A DNA stretch of 37,283 nt from a virus (taxonomy: Duplodnaviria > Caudoviricetes), in IMG/VR virus record IMGVR_UViG_3300043036_000110, positions 1 to 37,283 of that record; one strand, written 5' to 3'. The notes beneath the pieces are model-generated. The model searched no databases. It was not told the origin of the DNA and was given only the letters and a program-made list of their open reading frames with translations. This document shows, one piece after another, positions 1-20,353 of this stretch. The stretch's first letter is position 1, and each line of letters opens with the position of its first letter. Made by a program: the position numbers and the translations under genes.

Positions 1-201
1 GTCGTACGCGTATGCCTCTCGCTGGTATTTGGTGAGTTCTTCGATGAATTCTTGTAGGAGAATCATCAGATTAGGCGCTTCTTGGTGGTATTTTGTTATT
101 TTGATGATCTCTTGGTACCCTCTTAGCAACAAAGCTAGGTTATTTACGTCCACTGAGGACATTTCTAGGTTGAATGTCCCTCGGTGCTTAGTTAACCGCA
201 T
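1..201 (-). CDS. Hypothetical protein, partial (runs off the window edge)
   Basis: Manual translation from ATG at 201 (MRLTKHRGTFNLEMSS...) stays open to position 1; AGGAGA SD lies upstream. Confidence 0.6.
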   Translation of the reverse strand, partial: MRLTKHRGTFNLEMSSVDVNNLALLLRGYQEIIKITKYHQEAPNLMILLQEFIEELTKYQREAYAYD

Positions 202-282
202 GATTTCTTCTCCTGTTTTGTGTTAAACCTACGAAATTTGTAAGAAGAGCGTTGTTTCAGCTCTTCCTCCGTGTATTTCCTC

Positions 283-531
283 TTAGATTCGGACGAGTTG
301 GTCATATGTAGCCGTGTATTCGACCATAGTTCCATCGAGATCTACGATAGTACACATCTGTTCGAGTGCTGCCTTGGTAGAAGCGTATGCGAAGGCGATA
401 GGACGACCCTCAACGTCAGCAGACATGAGAGCGTTGCATGAGAATTCTTCGAGAGATTCGTAGAGAGCCTCCCATGAGTCCATTCCGAACTGTTCTGGTG
501 TGAGGGGATTGAGCAAGAGGTATTTTGTCAT
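283..531 (-). CDS. Hypothetical early protein (82 aa, acidic)
   Basis: ORF with AGGAG SD, co-oriented with its neighbours. Confidence 0.7.
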   Translation of the reverse strand: MTKYLLLNPLTPEQFGMDSWEALYESLEEFSCNALMSADVEGRPIAFAYASTKAALEQMCTIVDLDGTMVEYTATYDQLVRI

Positions 532-556
532 GGTATTTCTCCTAGTTGACGGTTAA

Positions 557-886
557 TTATTCAGCTGACTCGATGTTGTAGAACCAAACTTTTGGATCGT
601 TACCACCAGCGGCAATAAAGCGAACCAAATCACCATTGTCGTAGGCTTTCTGGAGGTCTTTAGTGAGAGCCTTGAGTGTTTCAGTGTGAGTGATACGATC
701 GATACGGCACTGACGCTTGTAACCATCAGAGCCTGTAGCTTCGATTGAACGAGTCAGGTCATTGAACTCTAAGTCCTTGATCTTAACAGGTGCTGAGAGA
801 CGATCTTCACCCAATGGGTTGTTTGTTGAGAAGATAACATCGATCTTTTTGATTGATGTGAATGCAGGTGTGAAAGCTTTAGTCAT
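557..886 (-). CDS. Hypothetical early protein (109 aa), paralogue of 1731..2102
   Basis: ATG with AAGGA SD; shares the S.PV / SD...R.CR / F.AA.G..P..WF pattern with the 1731..2102 product. Confidence 0.75.
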   Translation of the reverse strand: MTKAFTPAFTSIKKIDVIFSTNNPLGEDRLSAPVKIKDLEFNDLTRSIEATGSDGYKRQCRIDRITHTETLKALTKDLQKAYDNGDLVRFIAAGGNDPKVWFYNIESAE

Positions 887-967
887 GATGATTTCCTTTT
901 GGTTAAATGAATTGCTTGGTACCTACCCCAAGTGGTCTCTCCGTTGTATGCCCGAGAAGAGCAGTGA

Positions 968-1078
968 TTAGTAGTAGCGAACTACATCTACGAGTTCAGG
1001 AAGCCATTGATTTAACTCTCTGACATCCATTGTTTGATAGATTAGTTTGCCTGTTGGTTTGTAGTATACGTAGTACAT
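968..1078 (-). CDS. Small hypothetical protein (36 aa, MYYVYYKPTGKLIYQTMDVRELNQWLPELVDVVRYY)
   Basis: Manual translation; AAGGAG SD upstream; below the ORF-track cutoff. Confidence 0.55.
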   Translation of the reverse strand: MYYVYYKPTGKLIYQTMDVRELNQWLPELVDVVRYY

Positions 1079-1197
1079 TTGTAGAACTCCTTTGTTTGTT
1101 CAAGTGCAATCTCTTCAGCCATAGCACGAGGCATGTTAGCATCGTACTCTAGTATGCCAGCTCGTTCTTCGTAGAACTCCCTCTGGGCTTCAGTCAT
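1042..1197 (-). CDS. Small phage protein (51 aa) with an EERAGILEYDA..R..AE motif
   Basis: Manual translation MTEAQREFYEERAGILEYDANMPRAMAEEIA...; the motif resembles one recurrent in small phage proteins. Confidence 0.6.
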   Translation of the reverse strand: MTEAQREFYEERAGILEYDANMPRAMAEEIALEQTKEFYKCTTYTTNQQAN

Positions 1198-1202
1198 ATC
1201 GC

Positions 1203-1388
1203 TTACTCGCATATGATATCCTCTGCTTCAGTGAGTAACAACAATGCTTGTGAGCATGCCATTACACCACAGATAAAGATGATAGCAACTAACCCTAGAT
1301 CATAGCCATTCTGTTCTAGATTGACCATAGCATAGCGTGTTGCAGCGAACCATACAAACAGTATGGCGATGTGAGTGATGTACTTCAT
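1203..1388 (-). CDS. Small membrane protein (two hydrophobic segments)
   Basis: AAGGAG SD; two TM-like stretches. Confidence 0.65.
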   Translation of the reverse strand: MKYITHIAILFVWFAATRYAMVNLEQNGYDLGLVAIIFICGVMACSQALLLLTEAEDIICE

Positions 1389-1410
1389 ATATTCTCCTTA
1401 GAATGAAGCG

Positions 1411-1463
1411 AACAGAGCAAGAGCGCTCTCCATTGGGATTGCTCCCAACAGGCAGGACTCTTA
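1411..1463 (-). repeat. 53-nt structured intergenic element, copy 1
   Basis: Flanks identical to 1681..1733; internal 16-nt hairpin TTGGGA-GCAA-TCCCAA on the minus strand. Confidence 0.85.
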
Positions 1464-1667
1464 AGCACAAGCATTAGTTACCAACGAGAGTGGTACTTCA
1501 ATGTACGGGTTTGGAGGAACATCATCTCCGTGCTCAAACGCATTGCATTGCTGCAAGAAGAACTCCAAACCGTGGTAGTAGTCTACCGTATCGTACTCTT
1601 GGTTAGTACACACCACATGCTCCTCAAACAAACGAGTAGCCTTATCAACACAAGCACTTGTCAACAT
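1461..1667 (-). CDS. Hypothetical early protein (68 aa)
   Basis: ORF lies exactly between the two 53-nt elements; AAAGG SD. Confidence 0.7.
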   Translation of the reverse strand: MLTSACVDKATRLFEEHVVCTNQEYDTVDYYHGLEFFLQQCNAFEHGDDVPPNPYIEVPLSLVTNACA

Positions 1668-1680
1668 AACAACCTTTCAA

Positions 1681-1733
1681 AACAGAGCAAGAGCGCTCTC
1701 CACAGCCAAACAAGGCTGCAGGCAGGACTCTTA
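1681..1733 (-). repeat. 53-nt structured intergenic element, copy 2
   Basis: Same flanks as copy 1; internal hairpin CAGCC-TTGTTT-GGCTG on the minus strand. Confidence 0.85.
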
Positions 1734-2102
1734 TTCACCCAACAACTCTTCACCAACACAACCAACGAACCAAGCGTCAGGCGACCAACCGTCAGCAGCG
1801 TAGAAGATGACAGGCTTACCAACACGAGCAGAGAGCTTGTCAAACACAGCGTCAACAGACAGAGAACAACCGAGAGCCTTAGAAGCAAACGACACACGAC
1901 ACACACGGATGCGGTCATCGGAGCACACAACAGACACACGGTCAGCACCACGCACAACAGCACGGACGGTGACAGGAGACGAGTTGGAAGAGCCAACGAG
2001 AGACGAGAGACGGCGAACAGCAGCACGACCAGCCTCACGAACAGACAACGAGGCAACAGGACCAGCAGGAACAGACGAAGACCAAGAAGAAAGAACAGAC
2101 AC
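1731..2102 (-). CDS. Adenine-depleted hypothetical protein (123 aa), first gene of the leftward operon, paralogue of 557..886
   Basis: GTG start at 2102 behind a GGAGGT SD, in frame with ORF 1731..2177; motif similarity to 557..886 identifies the real frame. Confidence 0.7.
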   Translation of the reverse strand: MSVLSSWSSSVPAGPVASLSVREAGRAAVRRLSSLVGSSNSSPVTVRAVVRGADRVSVVCSDDRIRVCRVSFASKALGCSLSVDAVFDKLSARVGKPVIFYAADGWSPDAWFVGCVGEELLGE

Positions 2103-2400
2103 AGGACACCTCCAAGAGAGACAGACAGGGCAAGAGCACCCACACGACCCAACACCACCAGCCGAGACGACCACCACGAGCCGAGGGGGGACACGGAAGG
2201 AAGGAGAAGGGGATAACCAAACAACTTTGATTCTTTTTCACACACAAAGAAATATTACCCATAAGACTTTTCCCCACAGACTTCCCTCCACAGAAACCTA
2301 CCCCCAGAATTTCTATAATAAACCCACCCCACCCTCTTAAAAAATTATAGTATATTTTCTCCCAGGAAATTATAATAATTATTACTATCAGAATTATTAC

Positions 2401-2421
2401 TAGTCGGTTCCTATTAGGAAA
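2401..2421 (+). promoter_or_regulatory. Candidate phage-specific late promoter, copy 1 (TAGTCGGTTCCTATTAGGAAA)
   Basis: 18/21 identical to 20351..20371; both copies are intergenic and lie upstream of + strand gene blocks. Confidence 0.5.
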
Positions 2422-2475
2422 ACTATTTTAGAGTTAGCGAATAGCTAACGCTATCCACTTCTCATAGGACACACA

Positions 2476-4107
2476 TTGAGCAATCACAAAAAACTAGAAG
2501 CTCTTCGTGAGCTTAAACGCAGGGAAAAGATTAAAGAGTATGGTACTAACTTTGAGTTATTCGCCAAGGAACAAATCCGGATTCTCCCAAAGGACTCCCG
2601 AGAAGGATTCCAACCTTTTGTCTTTAATGAAGCCCAACATATTGTAAATGATGCTATTGAAAAACAGTTGAGAGAAACTGGTAAAGTAAGAGCTATCATT
2701 TTAAAGGCCCGACAAATGGGTCTCTCCACGTATACCGCATCACGAGTATTCTGGAAAAGTTATTTTAATAAGTATAACAAGTCTGTTGTTATGGCGCATG
2801 ATAGTGCCACATCTGATGCTTTGTTTACGATGAGTAAGAACGTCATTCAGCATATGTCTGAAGAGTTCCAACCAGAGATGAAGAAGTCTAACGCCAAAGA
2901 GATTATGTTTGAACATAATGATAGTGGCTATAGACTGTATACCGCAGGATCTCCTGAAGCGGGTAGGGGTATTACGCCTACTATTGCACATCTTTCAGAG
3001 GTAGCTTTCTGGCTCCATGATGAAAAAATTTTGGCGGGACTCTTTCAGGGTATCTCACAGGCAGATGGTACCGAAGTTATTCTTGAGAGTACAGCTAACG
3101 GTGTAGGTAATTCTTTTCATAGGTTATGGAAGGGTGCCGTAGAAGGTACCAACGAGTATATCCCTATTTTCGTACCTTGGTATCTCATGTCAGAGTACCG
3201 TAGGAAAGCTCCTGAAGGGTTTGAGAGAACTGCAGAAGAAGAAATATTAGTAACAAGATATAACTTAGATGATGATCAGTTATATTGGAGAAGATTAAAG
3301 GTAGCTGAGGGTGGGTTGGATAAGTTCCGACAAGAGTACCCTAGTAACCCTGAAGAAGCGTTTATTGTTTCCGGTAGTAATGTGTTCAACGTAGAGAAGC
3401 TTAGTGCTCTTGTTCCACAACCTATTCTGTCTCAGATGGACTTCAATTTTGAGTCTCAGATGATGGAGAATGTGAAGAATGGATCGATTGAAATATTTAA
3501 GTATCCTACTTTTGAAGATTCTTTTGCTATTGGCGCTGACGTTAGTCTCGGGGTCGGTAAAGACTTTTCTACGGCGGTGGTAATGAATGCTCAAAGGGAG
3601 GTCTGTGCTGTATATAGAAATAATACTATTGACCCTTCTCAGTTTGGTGATCTGCTATTTTATCTCGGTAGGTATTACAACAATGCTCTCCTTGCAGTAG
3701 AGTCAAACAGTATGGGTATTGCTACCCTGAATAGACTAACTCAAATGGGTTATGTCAACATGTATTATCAAACGAAGATGGCTAACGTGAGTAAAGAAGA
3801 AGGAACCCGTATTGGGTGGAGAACCACAATGGCATCTAAACCTGCTATTATTGGATTCTTGAAGAATGCTATTGAGCAAGAAGATATATGGATTCCTTCC
3901 CGTATAGTTATCGGGGAGTTGATGAATTATGTTGCTGACGATAATGGACGGACTAACGCTATTGTCGGTCATAATGACGATACTGTTATTGCTCTTGCGA
4001 TCGCGCTCGAAGTAATCCGGACTCACGGAGATAGGCTAACGACTAACAAGGTATCTTTTACACAAAAGATTGGATCCTTCCAAGAGGTAGAAACAAAATG
4101 GTTATAG
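2476..4107 (+). CDS. terL: Terminase large subunit
   Basis: Walker A-like ILKARQMGLST, Walker B-like AHLSEVAF, ESTANG coupling motif, RNase H-type nuclease motifs IGADVS..G.D, VESN and HNDDTVIA; TTG start with AGGA SD. Confidence 0.95.
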   Translation: MSNHKKLEALRELKRREKIKEYGTNFELFAKEQIRILPKDSREGFQPFVFNEAQHIVNDAIEKQLRETGKVRAIILKARQMGLSTYTASRVFWKSYFNKYNKSVVMAHDSATSDALFTMSKNVIQHMSEEFQPEMKKSNAKEIMFEHNDSGYRLYTAGSPEAGRGITPTIAHLSEVAFWLHDEKILAGLFQGISQADGTEVILESTANGVGNSFHRLWKGAVEGTNEYIPIFVPWYLMSEYRRKAPEGFERTAEEEILVTRYNLDDDQLYWRRLKVAEGGLDKFRQEYPSNPEEAFIVSGSNVFNVEKLSALVPQPILSQMDFNFESQMMENVKNGSIEIFKYPTFEDSFAIGADVSLGVGKDFSTAVVMNAQREVCAVYRNNTIDPSQFGDLLFYLGRYYNNALLAVESNSMGIATLNRLTQMGYVNMYYQTKMANVSKEEGTRIGWRTTMASKPAIIGFLKNAIEQEDIWIPSRIVIGELMNYVADDNGRTNAIVGHNDDTVIALAIALEVIRTHGDRLTTNKVSFTQKIGSFQEVETKWL

Positions 4108-4144
4108 AAGGAGGCGGGTACGCTGAAAAGATACCTAGAATATA

Positions 4145-4288
4145 ATGGCTATTGATTTAAAATTAACTGGTGAACAGAAAAAGCAGATGCAAGCTTTTGT
4201 TAAACCAACTCCACAGGGTAAATTAATGAACCCCAAGGAAAAGGTAGGTGAACGTTCTGAAAGAACCTTACCTATCCGTGGGCGATAA
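4145..4288 (+). CDS. Small basic hypothetical protein (47 aa, MAIDLKLTGEQKKQ...)
   Basis: Manual translation between terL and portal; codon usage like neighbouring genes; no clear SD. Confidence 0.5.
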   Translation: MAIDLKLTGEQKKQMQAFVKPTPQGKLMNPKEKVGERSERTLPIRGR

Positions 4289-4430
4289 GAGGTTGCCCTT
4301 AGCGGCCTAGGATTAAAAGAATATCCCTTGTGTCCTATCCGTTGGCTACTCATGGCAGGGATGATAGTAGTAGCAACTAATATTGGTCATTGTGACCTTG
4401 ATTGAATGATTGAACCCAGAAAGGTTTACA

Positions 4431-6686
4431 ATGACAGACAAACAAAATATCAATCGCTTTAAAGCGGATAGATATAAGGAAGTAGTAGGAGATGACGAAC
4501 TCTTAGCTATGATTGAACAGGGTATTACTAACTCTGTTGGTGACTTCTTAAATAGTTCCGACTTAGCTCGTGAACGTCAGAAGGCTACGTACGAATACGG
4601 TATGATGCCTCAGTTCCACTTGACTCCACAGGGCGTGTCTCAGATTGTTTCATCTGATACCGTGGAAGCTATTGAAGGTTACACAGCTATCTTAGCTGAG
4701 TTGATGTTTAATAATAACAGACTAGCTCGGTTTATCCCTGCTGGTACTTCACCTAAAGACTTTCATGAAGCTAAAGCAGCTTCTGACCTAGTTAACTATG
4801 CTATCTTTAAGCAGAATAACGGGTGGGAAATCCTTAATACATGGGTTAAATCAGCTTTGTTATGGAAGAACAGTATTGTTCGTTGGGAGTTCATTGAAGA
4901 CTTCGACTATAACTTTGAAGAGTATGATGAGATTGAACAATCTAACCTAGACCTCTTGTTAGCTGATGCTGAAGTAGAAGTAATGGGTCAACTCAAGTAC
5001 AAGCAAGAGCTTGATACTGACGCAGAAGGTAACTCATTCTACAAGACAATTTATGAGAATGTTCGCTTACGCCGTAAGAAGAACAAGACTCGAATTAACA
5101 TTAAGAACGTACATCCAGAATGTTTCCGTATCACTCGTGATGCGCACAACTTAGATGATGCAGGTTTCGTAGGTATCCAGATCGACATGACTCGTTCTGA
5201 GATTCGTAAGTACTTCCCTGATATCGCAGAAGATATTAACTGGGATGTCATCGGTGACGGTTCATATGACTGGGCTACCAAATACACAGAAGAACAGTCA
5301 GCTCGCAAGCGTCTGGTAGGTGAAGAATACTGGTTGGGTGGTAACTCCCGCGAACTATTCCCTTCAGAAGCTAACCGACAGATTACTGTTATTGAGTGCT
5401 GGCTACGTGTTGACCGTGATGGTGACGGTATTGCAGAACTTAAACACTTCATTATTGCAGGTTCAGTTATTCTGTTAGAAGAAGACTGTGACTCAGTACC
5501 CTTAGCAACTCTTTGCCCTTTCGAGGTACCTCACGAGTTCTTCGGCTTGTCTGTTGCTGACATGATTCGTCCATCTACACTAGCTACTACCGCTATCATG
5601 CGCGGTTTCGTAGAGAACGTGTACTTGACAAACTACTCACCTAAGCTAGCTGACCCTAACGTAGTTGACTTTAGCGCTCTTCAGAACATGAAGCCTAAAC
5701 AGATCATTGCTACTAACGGTAATCCTAATGGTGCTGTTGCTGCATTGACTCCTGACGCTATTAGCTCTGGTACTGTACCTCTATTAGAGATGTTACAGCT
5801 ACACAAAGAACAAGCTACTGGTTTGTCTAAGGCTGCTCAAGGTTTGAATGATACATTATACGTATCAGGTAACAGTGAAGAAAAGATGCAGAAAGCTATG
5901 TCTGCAGCACAAGTACGTATCCAGTATATGGCTCGTAGATTTGCTGAAACAGGCTTTAAACGATTAACTGAGGGTGTGTATAAAACTCTCCGTGATAAGA
6001 TGCGTGGTAAGACCATGCACTACTACGATCAGAATGATATCTTCAAGAATGTGGATCCAGGTACATTACCCTCCAACCTCTTGTTATACATTGATGTGGA
6101 CGTAGGTGATAACTCTAACCATAGTACAGTTAAAAAGATGACTATGGTTGGTCAGCAGTTGATTCCAGCGTTGCAACAAGCAGGTGCGGGTGGTGCGGTT
6201 AATCCTGAAGCCGCTGTACGAATTGCTTGCAAAACCCTTGAAGCTATGGACTTAGATCCACTAGACTATCTAGTAGATTATACAGATCCTAAGTTTAAAG
6301 ATAACGCTCTTAAGTCTCGACAAGCTGAACAACAAGCTTCTGAGAAACAAAAGCAACTTGAAGAACAAGCCAAGCAATTGGACTTAGCACAAAGACAGGC
6401 TACGGTCGATCTTACTAATGTACAAGCTAAGAACGCTCTTCAAGATAACACAAAACAACTTATGGTTGCAATGGACAAGTCCTACCAAGAGTGGGGCAAA
6501 CTCTATATTATGGCTGCTAAAGAGGGTGTTGAACCACCTAAGCAACCTGATATTAAAGAGCTTTTGGCTATGGCCCAAGGCTTTATCCGTGGCGATATGT
6601 CCGGTGATGCTTCCCGCCCACAAGGTGGTCAAGCAATGCCTCAAGTAAATGGACCAGCCGCTGCAGGTGAGCAACCGCAAATGTAA
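4431..6686 (+). CDS. Portal protein (phiEco32/SU10-like, about 750 aa)
   Basis: Follows terL; VIECWLRVDRDGDGIAELK and PHEFFGLSVAD motifs; C-terminal coiled coil; ATG at 4431 behind AAAGG. Confidence 0.9.
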   Translation: MTDKQNINRFKADRYKEVVGDDELLAMIEQGITNSVGDFLNSSDLARERQKATYEYGMMPQFHLTPQGVSQIVSSDTVEAIEGYTAILAELMFNNNRLARFIPAGTSPKDFHEAKAASDLVNYAIFKQNNGWEILNTWVKSALLWKNSIVRWEFIEDFDYNFEEYDEIEQSNLDLLLADAEVEVMGQLKYKQELDTDAEGNSFYKTIYENVRLRRKKNKTRINIKNVHPECFRITRDAHNLDDAGFVGIQIDMTRSEIRKYFPDIAEDINWDVIGDGSYDWATKYTEEQSARKRLVGEEYWLGGNSRELFPSEANRQITVIECWLRVDRDGDGIAELKHFIIAGSVILLEEDCDSVPLATLCPFEVPHEFFGLSVADMIRPSTLATTAIMRGFVENVYLTNYSPKLADPNVVDFSALQNMKPKQIIATNGNPNGAVAALTPDAISSGTVPLLEMLQLHKEQATGLSKAAQGLNDTLYVSGNSEEKMQKAMSAAQVRIQYMARRFAETGFKRLTEGVYKTLRDKMRGKTMHYYDQNDIFKNVDPGTLPSNLLLYIDVDVGDNSNHSTVKKMTMVGQQLIPALQQAGAGGAVNPEAAVRIACKTLEAMDLDPLDYLVDYTDPKFKDNALKSRQAEQQASEKQKQLEEQAKQLDLAQRQATVDLTNVQAKNALQDNTKQLMVAMDKSYQEWGKLYIMAAKEGVEPPKQPDIKELLAMAQGFIRGDMSGDASRPQGGQAMPQVNGPAAAGEQPQM

Positions 6687-14769: not shown

Positions 14770-15576
14770 ATGAAAATTTTTTATTCGCCAGTTGCGCGTC
14801 AAAAAGTCAAAGTAAAATTAACTATCAATCAAGATGGTTTCATAATTGAACAAGCAAACCTAGTTCTTAAAACAGATGAGTTCGGTGTAAATCTAGTTGA
14901 TGCCGATGGAAATACCACAGGCGAATTAGTGGCTACGGAGTTTGATGACCGAATGAGGTATGATGTAAAGTTTGCTGACATTCTGACTCGCGAAGATCTA
15001 TCTGATCGTGCTGCTTATTGCTTTCCGTCAGGGCAGCTCCTTGCTCCAATGTTCAACTTTTGGCAAGCAACGCAGCCGGGACGATTGACTGGTCGTCAAC
15101 TTTCAATGCAAAACGGATTTAGCACAACAGCATGTTTGATTGTTCCTTTTAAAGACTCTGAGATTAACAATTGGGTGCTTGGTATTCACGTAAACCCAGA
15201 CCCTCAATTCTTTGAAATCATCAATGGAACGGCTGTTGAGCATCCAGTAGATTCTGTAGGTGGTCTTGGTTCTCTACGAGAAATCATGTCTCCATCTATT
15301 ACATTTGACAATCTTGAGGTAGTTGGTATTGCAGAGACAATTGTTGAAGTGCCATTTACTGTACTTGATTCAAGCGGTGAACAGCACCTTGGTGTCTGCG
15401 ATGTGTATCTTGAAGTTACTGGTGGAAACTTGCTTATGGCAAGGGTTCGTGCTGTGAATGGAAAAGGTATTGCTCGCATCTCTTTAGCTAACATGATGCC
15501 TAGCGATCAGTTCAAAATTAAAGCTGGCTTCAAATATTATTCAGGTGTCAGCGAATGCAAGATCACAGTGCAGTAA
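14770..15576 (+). CDS. Hypothetical protein (268 aa), possibly with an Ig-like C-terminal domain
   Basis: ATG at 14770 behind AAGGA; beta-strand-patterned C-terminus. The fold call is inference. Confidence 0.7.
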   Translation: MKIFYSPVARQKVKVKLTINQDGFIIEQANLVLKTDEFGVNLVDADGNTTGELVATEFDDRMRYDVKFADILTREDLSDRAAYCFPSGQLLAPMFNFWQATQPGRLTGRQLSMQNGFSTTACLIVPFKDSEINNWVLGIHVNPDPQFFEIINGTAVEHPVDSVGGLGSLREIMSPSITFDNLEVVGIAETIVEVPFTVLDSSGEQHLGVCDVYLEVTGGNLLMARVRAVNGKGIARISLANMMPSDQFKIKAGFKYYSGVSECKITVQ

Positions 15577-16151
15577 CCCTATGGCCTTCTGTTGTAGTAA
15601 TTGATATTGACAACAGAGACGTTCTTAATGCGTCTTTGTTGCCATTATTGCTTGATGTTTTTAACAACACATCAACTGGAAGTGAGCACTATGAGCGCAT
15701 ACCTCATAATATTTTTGAGATGAATGAGCCACCAATTCAAGAACTCAAAAACATACTAGTATCTATTGCGCGTTTTCACTATGACATTGGCGATAATTTT
15801 GAAATTGATGGGCACGAAATTGTTTCGTTTGATCGTCAATTTATTAAAACGCATGTCGATTCTGATGAAGGCGACTTAACATTACAGTACTTTGTAAAAG
15901 CACCACAAGAAAACCAAGAGCAGCCAGTCAATAAATTTGGCAACGCATCTTTTGTTTTGGTAAATCCTGCGCAACCTTCTGGATCATTTAGATTCAAAGA
16001 AGAAAGGCCCAGTGAGTACCCCCTACTACCAAGAGACGGCCTTGTTGTAATGTATAGATCACATATTCCCCACTACCAATGCCCATATAAAGGGGATGAG
16101 CCAATGGTTCAGGTAGTGTGTAACATCAAAATAAAAAGGACACCACATTAA
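15555..16151 (+). CDS. 2OG-Fe(II) oxygenase-like protein (HxD...H)
   Basis: HVD, then LTLQYFV, P.DG.VVMY.SHIPH..., matching the layout of phage 2OG-Fe(II) oxygenases. Confidence 0.7.
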   Translation: MQDHSAVTLWPSVVVIDIDNRDVLNASLLPLLLDVFNNTSTGSEHYERIPHNIFEMNEPPIQELKNILVSIARFHYDIGDNFEIDGHEIVSFDRQFIKTHVDSDEGDLTLQYFVKAPQENQEQPVNKFGNASFVLVNPAQPSGSFRFKEERPSEYPLLPRDGLVVMYRSHIPHYQCPYKGDEPMVQVVCNIKIKRTPH

Positions 16152-17525
16152 ATGGCAACATTCAACATCACATCAAAACACCCAGAGTCGGGTCAGATTG
16201 CAAAATTTCTATACCGAACAGATGACAGCGCACTCCTTCACGAAGATGGAACTCCTGTTTTATCCACCTCTGGTCGCACGTTTACTGATGCCGTAATTTT
16301 TGACAAGGAGTCTCCACTCAAAAAGTCAAATCAAATTAAGAGGCTAAAGATTTCTCTTGGCTTAAGCTGCAACTATGAATGTAGCTACTGTAGCCAAAGG
16401 TTTGTTGAACGTTCAGTTGAAACTAACCCACACGATGTAGATGCTTTCATGGTATCTCTACCAAACTGGTTTGATGGTGGTGATGATGGAATTGGCGGTG
16501 GTGTGTCTGTTGAGTTTTGGGGTGGTGAGCCTTTTGTGTATTGGAAGACATTAAAACCATTAGCTGAAAAGATTAAGGCTAAATATCCAAACATCAGATT
16601 TTCTGTTATCACAAATGGCTCTTTACTAGATTCAGAAAAGAACGCATGGCTTGATGAAAACGAATTTACTGTTTCTATTTCCCATGATGCTGGAGGTCAG
16701 TCATTCCGAGGACCAGACCCGTTAACAGATGAGGGTTCACGTAATGCTGTTCTCGACTTATATGCCCGATTGAAGCCAAAAGGTAGATTTAGTTTTAACA
16801 CAATGATTCATGCTGGTAATCAGTCTCGTGATGCTGCTTACGAATATTTTAAGCGGTTTACTGGAGACGAAGATGTTCCGCTTGGTCAAGGTGAGTTCAT
16901 TGATGCTTATGATGAAGGTGGGCTTGGCAACTCTCTTAAGAGTTTGTCTGATGAAATTAAATTCAGACTCAATTCCTTAACCGAAATGCGTGTTGGTAAA
17001 GGCTCTAAATTCAGTATTCCTGTAATGAAAATTCAAGGGTTTATTGATACTGTTCGCTATCAAAAGACAATCACATCTATCTCACAAAAGTGTGGGATGG
17101 ACGACCCAAGTAATATTGCTGTTGACCTTAATGGTAACGTAATTACTTGTCAAAACACATCAGCATCCGCAATAGCTCCTAATGGTAATAGCCACAAGAT
17201 TGGACATGTTGATGACTTCGAAAACATTAGGTTAGATACGGCAACTCACTTAGCAAAACGAAGCGAATGTTTATCATGCCCAGTAGTCCATTTGTGTGCT
17301 GGCTCTTGCATGTTCCTTGAAGGTGACTTGTTTGAAGCTTCATGCAAAAATTCTTTCTCTGACAACATTGTGTACTTTGCTGCTGCCTTTGAAGTGATGA
17401 CTGGTTTTGTTCCTGTCTACATTGATGGCAATCAACGTGAAGACCGCAAAGATATTTTCGGCATGGTGAATGGCATACCAGCTAACACCAGAAAACCATT
17501 TCCAATTCCTGTTGTATCAGCTTAA
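16152..17525 (+). CDS. Radical SAM enzyme with SPASM domain
   Basis: CNYECSYC (CxxxCxxC), FWGGEP, ITNGSLL, ISHD; SPASM-type Cys set KCG...ITC...CLSCPVVHLCAGSC...C. Confidence 0.95.
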   Translation: MATFNITSKHPESGQIAKFLYRTDDSALLHEDGTPVLSTSGRTFTDAVIFDKESPLKKSNQIKRLKISLGLSCNYECSYCSQRFVERSVETNPHDVDAFMVSLPNWFDGGDDGIGGGVSVEFWGGEPFVYWKTLKPLAEKIKAKYPNIRFSVITNGSLLDSEKNAWLDENEFTVSISHDAGGQSFRGPDPLTDEGSRNAVLDLYARLKPKGRFSFNTMIHAGNQSRDAAYEYFKRFTGDEDVPLGQGEFIDAYDEGGLGNSLKSLSDEIKFRLNSLTEMRVGKGSKFSIPVMKIQGFIDTVRYQKTITSISQKCGMDDPSNIAVDLNGNVITCQNTSASAIAPNGNSHKIGHVDDFENIRLDTATHLAKRSECLSCPVVHLCAGSCMFLEGDLFEASCKNSFSDNIVYFAAAFEVMTGFVPVYIDGNQREDRKDIFGMVNGIPANTRKPFPIPVVSA

Positions 17526-19693: not shown

Positions 19694-20353
19694 ATGTCTG
19701 AATTTAAAGGCGTACAACTTAAAAGAAGTACTACAGCAGGAGCCGTTCCTGAAGCAGCACAGCTAGTTGAAGGCGAATTAGCTATTAACTTGTTGGACAA
19801 AAAAATATACAGTAAGAACGCTACAACTGTATTTGAATTAAAAGGTGCTGTTGATGACGGTACTATCACTACTGCTAAACTAGCATCTAGTGTTTTAACT
19901 GGGTTCCTTAACTCAGTTTACCCAGTTGGTTCTCAGTATGTTAACTATTCTAACGGGACTAACCCTGCAACACTACTAGGTATTGGTACTTGGGTAGCTG
20001 TCTCCGGTAGGGTCGTTGTTGGTCTTGACCCTGCTGATCCATTATTTGATACTGCAGGTGAAACAGGTGGTTCTAAGAATACACCTCTTGTATCTCACAG
20101 CCATACAGGTACTGCTACTAATACCTCACTAACAGGTGTGTTCCCCACATCTGCAGGTGCAAACTTGTATTCAGGTACCTTCACAAGAGGTTCAGGATAC
20201 GGTGGTAACGGTGGTGAACCTCAAACTAACTACCCAGTTAACTTTGATGGTAGTCACACTCATAATTTGTCAATTAGTACAGAAGGTACCTCTGGTACTG
20301 ACACTAATTTACAACCATACATTGTTGCTTACGTTTGGAAACGTACGGCGTAA
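19694..20353 (+). CDS. Short tail fibre / collar-type protein
   Basis: LKRSTT..AVP...L.EGELAINL N-terminus; YPVGS.Y...NPATLLG.GTW...GRVVVG; HSH/HTH motifs; NLQPYIVAYVWKRTA end. Confidence 0.75.
   Translation: MSEFKGVQLKRSTTAGAVPEAAQLVEGELAINLLDKKIYSKNATTVFELKGAVDDGTITTAKLASSVLTGFLNSVYPVGSQYVNYSNGTNPATLLGIGTWVAVSGRVVVGLDPADPLFDTAGETGGSKNTPLVSHSHTGTATNTSLTGVFPTSAGANLYSGTFTRGSGYGGNGGEPQTNYPVNFDGSHTHNLSISTEGTSGTDTNLQPYIVAYVWKRTA

Follow-up and report, generated by a model that had tools for sequence, protein, structure and literature searches.

The window, by which we mean the whole stretch of 37,283 nucleotides that was analyzed, carries at the head of its leftward early arm a zone from which adenine is almost completely missing on the coding strand. 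This purge occurs throughout the phage lineage; it is set by the position in the genome and not by the encoded protein, it is independent of sequence context and it ends at a conserved hairpin element. The explanation that we favor, with a probability of about 0.4, is that the loss of A from the coding strand rids the DNA that is probably first to enter the cell of type I and m6A palindromic type II restriction sites.

The window represents part of a podophage genome, made up of a structural arm that runs rightward and the beginning of an early arm that runs leftward. According to PHROG and Pfam annotation the structural arm contains a terminase at 2476, portal, capsid, tail and large virion proteins; three large virion proteins gave no informative match in the PDB. 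The terminase large subunit (TerL; 2476..4107, + strand), which has PHROG terminase matches and served as the anchor for finding relatives, is 59% identical to that of the closest cultured phage, Roseobacter phage CRP-7; the next best whole-length match is 33% identical. With a TerL nearest to CRP-7 and with divergent early and structural arms, the phage is probably a CRP-7-type podophage. PMC6918029 introduces CRP-7 as forming a new group, one that has a T7-like RNA polymerase. In the relatives G002-G005 a T7-like RNA polymerase gene follows those for DNA polymerase and primase; the contig of the window ends short of this region. In relatives the phage polymerase gene is reached only some 18-22 kb into the early arm, so that the first genes of the zone are probably read by the host polymerase. 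A predicted phage (T7-like) RNA polymerase promoter (2401..2418, + strand) serves the structural arm and points away from the zone into terL. A second copy is present in the window at 20351, and seven of nine near-complete relatives have 4-7 copies, the other two 0-1. Inside the tail module (15555-17525, + strand) are genes for a 2OG-Fe(II) oxygenase and a radical SAM protein.

A direct count on the + strand gave 28 T in 1731-2213, 25 T (5.2%) in 1741-2220 and a single T, at 2111, in 2036-2213. With the 27.8% T of the window as background, the binomial probability is 3e-37 for the 480-nt stretch and 5e-24 for the 178-nt stretch. The last two counts agree exactly with those of the sequence-only reading, and a sliding-window analysis confirmed that the stretch is exceptional: from position 2400 onward the lowest count in any 480-nt window is 83 T, as compared with 25. 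Contigs from two runs span 1379-2409 with 0 differences to the window (one of the runs, X1, may be the source sample of the window). This agreement and the recurrence of the trait in relatives rule out an assembly artefact.

The A-free zones begin just after a conserved motif, TCTTTGTGTGTG-AAAAAGAATCA (2228..2250, − strand, directly upstream of the zone), which is seen in the alignment and the regex core of which occurs in 61 of 66 loci; in this form it is absent from CRP-7. The motif is a candidate terminase or end signal, or a candidate −10-like element. It is followed by GTTGT and two C-tracts (2212-2209 and 2190-2185; together 2185..2225, − strand), which form a candidate physical left end, and by a non-coding leader of 110 nt (2103..2213, − strand). 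The sole A of the leader, which corresponds to the T at 2111, sits in the Shine-Dalgarno sequence GGAGG (2113-2109), as had been claimed. This sequence is located 6 nt before the GTG start codon (2102-2100), also correctly recognized before, which opens a frame of 123 amino acids ending with TAA at 1733-1731. The A-purged gene (1731..2102, − strand) contains 7.3% A, with 7, 16 and 2 A at codon positions 1, 2 and 3, and encodes a predicted small OB-fold protein. Because a strand without A has no stop codons, the length of an open reading frame is no evidence of coding here; the overlapping long frames at 1530-2216 (+), 1807-2340 (+) and 1661-2245 (−) and an upstream GTG at 2177 are by-products of the missing stop codons. 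The 123-aa gene is taken as coding because it has homologs, a codon-position bias and a confident fold. The second early gene (1461..1667, − strand, 68 aa) serves as an internal control; its A content is normal (24.6%), and A occupies 7 of its 26 four-fold sites.

Next we analyzed the region upstream of terL in related phages. The relatives are the best 80 of 214 terL matches in IMG/VR; 66 of them, including the window itself (L003), have at least 500 nt upstream. When the trait is defined as a 100-nt window with no more than 5 A on the early strand, it is present in 62 of these 66 loci, the exceptions being L052, L072, L076 and L078. Five loci outside the anchor pattern were left out and the remaining 61 were reduced to 45 representatives (the anchor of L004 is misplaced); 42 of the 45 have the trait, and since related loci are not independent such counts are descriptive. 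The zone ranges in length from about 80 to 1100 nt, and the part of the early arm that is affected is put at its first 0.1-1.2 kb. In four of five near-complete genomes scanned it is the only place of this kind; G004 is without it. The bias at this position also occurs in the cultured phage CRP-7, in which no A is found from record position 57,384 to 57,607. This A-free leader is followed by a gene of 128 aa with 9 A in 387 nt, which belongs to the family of the window gene (E 6e-14). The strong selection on base content that the sequence-only reading had proposed for the head of the leftward early arm is supported by this conservation. The CRP-7 gene (record 57,608-57,994, + strand; L001:9609-9995) is unannotated in GenBank, which instead gives gp72 on the opposite strand, probably a shadow ORF that results from missing stop codons. 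A-free zones can mislead gene callers in this way.

Seven control phages, namely CRP-4, CRP-5, CRP-6, two weaker terL matches and ICBM1 and ICBM2 (first 1.5 kb), were found to have no such zone. CRP-5 and CRP-6 infect host strains that are also infected by CRP-7, as reported in PMC6918029. The trait is directly testable in culture with CRP-7, which has the zone, and these two phages of the same hosts, which do not. A search for TerL relatives in host genomes found none. Among literature listings and the opening parts of abstracts, a set without subscription papers, there was no paper describing the trait.

The purge follows position and not protein. With genes called by a heuristic caller, the zone was found to be occupied by at least seven BLASTP clusters and about 10 singletons, many of them small hydrophobic proteins; in L005 and L009 the zone holds a leader only. 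The leaders of relatives are variable in length and contain 3.2% A over 3811 nt, and the leader has no excess of RNA structure (z = −0.01). Synonymous sites, amino acids, Shine-Dalgarno sequences and start codons are all affected. A Shine-Dalgarno sequence of the GGGG type in place of GGAG is found in 16 of 41 zone genes versus 6 of 209 downstream genes, and GTG starts in 14 of 41 versus 6 of 209. Three zone genes have no A at all between start and stop codon; such natural genes show that genome position can force the wholesale recoding of a protein. Before the first hairpin, A occupies 1.8% of 2501 synonymous sites; after it the value is 36.5% of 6633, and in loci without a detected hairpin 28.1% of 1923. 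By gene order from the start, the values are 4, 13, 29, 34, 41 and 45%.

The 3' boundary of the zone is an element of about 58 nt with a covarying stem and an invariant AGAGCG..TGCTC. In the window the first copy is located at 1681..1738 (− strand; repeat D1/D4, covariance-model match 1673-1747), and a second copy, found by repeat search and as a covariance-model match at 1403-1477, lies at 1411..1468 (− strand). Six of six upper-stem pairs show compensatory changes, and the element includes G-U pairs, that is, it is RNA-like. The covariance model gave 17 matches in 41 sources, all of them within about 1.1 kb of the terL start, and none in CRP-7, G004, L034, L062 and L078. The family, for which a search of Rfam gave no match, is confined to the head of the early arm, where 1-3 copies occur per genome, and has two mutually exclusive folds. 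A single long hairpin is favored over a two-stem fold (mean P 0.73 versus 0.16 in 44 copies). We take the long hairpin to resemble the early RNase III sites of T7, and the invariant TGCTC may resemble boxA; an RNase III-like or an antiterminator-like role may be envisaged. The put RNA of HK022 is presented in PMC9378689 as two adjacent stems with conserved residues that bind the beta' zinc domain. A two-stem consensus was obtained for the present element, but in most copies the long single hairpin is favored. Compared at equal distances from the start, synonymous A before and after the hairpin amounts to 2.7 versus 30.5% (200-400 nt), 1.6 versus 21.2% (400-600 nt) and 0.4 versus 30.1% (600-800 nt). 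Past the hairpin it is about ten-fold or more higher but climbs for a further 750 nt.

Because the step is RNA-like and the trait is absent in phages of the same hosts, two explanations in which A is a liability in the message retain some probability. In both, adenine itself would be unusable in the first seconds of infection, since either the polymerase has no ATP at its disposal or a host effector acts on every A of the message or DNA that comes in. The first genes would for this reason be written in a three-letter code, and genes recruited to the tip, among them copies of an OB-fold gene from further downstream, would have been rewritten without A. We hold this to be possible, albeit tentatively. 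In one version, which was among the causes offered in the sequence-only reading and which taken separately appears unlikely, the first cistron is built for a nearly ATP-free transcription: the polymerase would read a T-free template while ATP is short as a result of an energy-limited host, a leak induced by entry or an ATP-destroying defence. Transcription may in this way pull the genome in, and the hairpin would then make elongation resistant to pausing. A purge that is free of context and includes Shine-Dalgarno sequences and start codons is what this version predicts, and a step at an RNA element with a possibly boxA-like TGCTC fits, as does the distance of the phage polymerase gene, which would leave the zone to the host polymerase. 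The absence of the zone in the same-host phages CRP-5 and CRP-6 argues against it; furthermore, the translation of these genes consumes ATP, which normally exceeds the other NTPs in abundance.

In the other version, which we rank behind the former and also find unlikely, a host enzyme or one delivered with the virion cuts or modifies RNA at any adenine, and the absence of A would protect the mRNA that is processed first, namely the stretch between the 5' end and the first RNase III-like hairpin. This agrees with the dependence of synonymous A on the side of the hairpin at equal distance, with the long hairpin that is favored on average and with the fact that non-coding leaders are purged too. 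On the other hand, all 12 contexts that can be tested at four-fold sites are purged, which does not fit motif-specific toxins. mRNAs without ACA escape MazF, and there too composition is shaped by a missing target that contains A; here, however, the depletion extends to all tested contexts and not to one triplet. Cleavage by MazF at ACA, a cause put forward in the sequence-only reading, is for this reason rejected together with any other single-motif RNase. In addition, GA, the target of CmdT, is among the commonest residual contexts, and the genes after the hairpin would be transcribed only seconds later. Only one of 18 large virion proteins is weakly nuclease-like (SNase, E 1e-4), and it comes from a genome without the zone.

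We prefer restriction avoidance because it explains the start of the zone at a probable genome end, the decay of the purge with distance and the choice of the strand. According to this proposal the zone would begin at the physical left end and enter first, as in T7. The systems escaped would be those that depend on an adenine in each strand of their site, namely type I and m6A palindromic type II restriction; an A-free strand would offer no site in which both A and T are read, regardless of the specificity of the host. A can be lost from the coding strand only, since a loss from the other strand would remove T from the coding strand and with it every start and stop codon. The products of the zone, often OB-fold and sometimes small membrane proteins, or simply the elapsed time would protect the A-containing DNA behind it. 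What we infer is where the end lies, in which order the DNA enters, which kind of enzyme selects and what the gene products do. If the proposal is true, the zone provides an escape from type I systems that is independent of their specificity, an extreme form of a site-depleted leading region. Each of the three causes, that is restriction escape, ATP-independent first transcription and an adenine-reading defence, would be new biology.

The restriction proposal was examined with recognition sequences from the enzyme list of Biopython, a proxy in which genuine type I motifs are scarce. Of the listed sequences, 47 of 48 bipartite and 123 of 181 palindromic ones are impossible on a strand without A. 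The 48 bipartite sites have a density of 7.7/kb in the zones, 30.9/kb downstream and 36.8/kb when A and T are symmetrised. The zone of the window contains one four-base palindrome in 483 nt where 11.1 are expected (dinucleotide shuffles; 0 of 1000 as low), with P about 6e-4 at the rate of the rest of the window. In nine of ten genomes CGCG belongs to the ten rarest tetramers, and in six of ten CCGG or GGCC does, which indicates that restriction pressure acts on the lineage. Other results argue against the proposal. In 41 pooled zone genes the ratio of observed to expected A-containing palindromes is 1.03 versus 0.84 downstream, and for GC-only palindromes it is 0.26 versus 0.27. At 7-10 nt after residual A's, the spacing of type I sites, there is no shortage of T (0.43-0.51). 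Non-palindromic sites, 229 of 433 of which are still possible, are denser in the zone (696 versus 408/kb). The sharp boundary is an RNA-like element with G-U pairs, the same-host phages CRP-5 and CRP-6 lack the zone, no known anti-restriction family was recognised in it, and L005 and L009 have a leader only. The earlier suggestion of a loss of restriction sites is in this respect only partly borne out: restriction provides the best fit, but through bipartite, type I-like sites and not through palindromes, which the residual A's of the pooled relatives do not avoid.

Among the nearest known counterparts is the early-injected DNA of Autographiviridae that face type I restriction, such as the Murciaviruses with Mme2I, together with T7 0.3/Ocr and the first-step region of T5. 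In the account of PMC12455610 the type I enzyme Mme2I restricts Murciaviruses only via motifs in the early-injected region, which provides a direct precedent. Shared features are a podophage with a T7-like polymerase and a variable head of the early arm, and the depletion of bipartite type I-like sites, measured with the 48-site proxy, occurs here as well. These phages lose particular motifs, whereas here a whole base is gone from one strand, with recoding of proteins, Shine-Dalgarno sequences and starts. Motif avoidance beyond composition is seen in the palindromes of the window, but the pooled relatives are no lower than the downstream rate. For the window phage, stepwise entry would be an assumption. 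Phages with Z-genomes (2-aminoadenine), the subject of PMC8599892, likewise tie the avoidance of adenine to restriction escape; theirs is a genome-wide chemical replacement via PurZ, while no PurZ was found in five near-complete genomes of the present lineage, the change in which is local, one-stranded and in the sequence. The leading regions of plasmids are first-entering DNA that is likewise compositionally distinct and GC-rich (PMC13478746); they are given as codon-adapted and not consistently depleted of motifs, and the abstract gives no single-base purge.

There are hints that the zone starts at a physical genome end. The contig depth in run X1 is about 600 over 1379-2101 versus 305-332 in the structural arm (leftwards 602, 592, 527 and 429), and in run X2 173 versus 70-89, with a step estimated at 2164-2252; depth is per contig, other strains may contribute to it, and contigs cannot map an end. 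The depth over 1-2400 reaches at most about double the value of the structural arm in the two runs, which could be due to sharing between strains, a pac gradient or a terminal repeat 1-2 kb long. The left ends of the cobaviruses (Zobellviridae) ICBM1 and ICBM2 were mapped by PacBio (PMC6775973). They begin with TTGT and two C-tracts, as does the window at 2225-2185 (− strand), and the two-armed genome with a C-tract at the left end resembles the layout found here; A is normal there in CRP-4, CRP-5, ICBM1 and ICBM2, while CRP-7-type phages carry an RNA polymerase gene. In relatives, contigs do not preferentially end at the TCTTTGTGTGTG-AAAAAGAATCA motif. Upstream of the zone, a scan for sigma-70 promoters was negative and, if the end lies there, the first 180 nt contain no ordinary −10 element. 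On the basis of the depth and of the analogy to cobavirus ends, the zone may be the first DNA to be injected and transcribed. Contigs from RNA runs barely cover the zone and are uninformative on its expression.

Three further explanations relate to the T-free template or to mutation. A modified thymine in virion DNA, proposed in the sequence-only reading, could hold up the host RNA polymerase on the template strand, with a phage factor needed to release it; this would explain why T is missing in every context and why the trait is restricted to one lineage. We consider it very unlikely: no ThyX, ThyA/hydroxymethylase-family or PurZ gene was found in five of five near-complete genomes, in searches whose positive controls responded (the Tet_JBP search had no such control), and no hypermodification family among 213 ORFs scanned; moreover, the relatives assemble well from standard libraries. 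Mutation instead of selection, by A-specific hypermutation through DGR-type reverse transcription or A-to-I deamination, has even less to recommend it. Although a sense strand without A is also typical of DGR targets and a short second deaminase-like ORF is present in the early arm of G003 and G005, the five genomes have no reverse transcriptase (RVT_1), and A at four-fold sites is replaced mainly by T (38.5 to 69.5%), with G rising only from 9.6 to 15.4%, unlike A-to-G editing. A repeat of the zone, such as the template repeat of a DGR, did not turn up within 1-4500. Finally, T-containing dimers dominate UV damage, and in aquatic phages a T-free template would offer few pyrimidine dimers that block the first transcription. 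This protection, also among the causes claimed before, is rejected as the main cause and is the least credible of all: synonymous A flanked by pyrimidines, which is dimer-safe (template R-T-R), is purged equally (23 of 1057 sites, 2.2%, versus 833 of 2132, 39%, downstream), and CC on the template is about twice as dense in the zone.

The A-purged gene has a paralog with normal A (30.3%) in the same arm (557..886, − strand, 109 aa; hhalign probability 95.6%, E 1e-8). A occupies none of 90 four-fold sites in the purged gene but 14 of 50 in the paralog. The purged protein has 16 close homologs, and the family comprises 122 representatives at 50% identity; among 127 family sequences examined, 23 are poor in residues that require A and 98 are normal. 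A pair of purged and normal-A copies is present in 9 of the 45 representative loci. A quick, unfinished family tree contains 11 label changes, only one of which is forced by strong branches, and a repeated origin of purged copies is not supported by it. The AF2 model of the purged protein (pLDDT 85.5) and a model of the paralog (76.5) have the same order of strands and helices, a beta-beta-beta-alpha-beta-beta barrel that matches solved OB folds, and structure comparisons with both returned OB folds only. VIA Z values were 7-8 for AB5 B subunits and about 5 for SSB/PriB, and the best Foldseek E was 3e-3. For these predicted models, the AB5 matches reflect the shared OB fold only and do not point to a function; our guess is that the proteins may bind nucleic acid. 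Weak sequence matches in the PDB to gp120 (E 0.002 or worse) were regarded as chance. Pfam, PHROG, PADLOC, Rfam and the ESM Atlas gave no named match for the products or the sequence of the zone; an anti-restriction protein was not recognised in Pfam, PHROG or PADLOC, nor an Ocr-like gene. Compared with cultured phages at the DNA and protein level, the zone gave chance matches or none.

The relatives have a number of additional features. L052, a GC3-rich genome without an A-free zone, contains a tRNA-like sequence just upstream of terL (L095:2435-2749 region, recognized by eye). Thymidylate synthase of either class is missing in G002, G003, G004, G005 and G009, while CRP-4, CRP-5 and CRP-6 carry one; a dCMP deaminase is present in the four of these five genomes whose ORFs were scanned. 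The second dCMP-deaminase-like ORF of the early arm (about 101 aa; L092:2250-2552, − strand, and L099:4076-4381, − strand), which lies beside the usual one, is possibly an anti-defence or nucleotide-signal enzyme. Tad2-like (Thoeris anti-defence) genes are located at the far end of the early arm (L098:725-1021, − strand; L096:11407-11664, + strand). The N-terminal enzyme domains of the large virion proteins differ between genomes: they are weakly SNase-like in G004 (L096:15965-19681, − strand), glycosyl hydrolase 108 in G002 (L087:32-2539, + strand) and pesticin-like lysozyme in CRP-7 (L002:25699-29367, − strand). The RNA polymerase gene of G004 (L096:5075-8006, + strand) is split into two ORFs around an ORF of 163 aa and a phage-promoter-like motif, possibly by an intron or an insertion.
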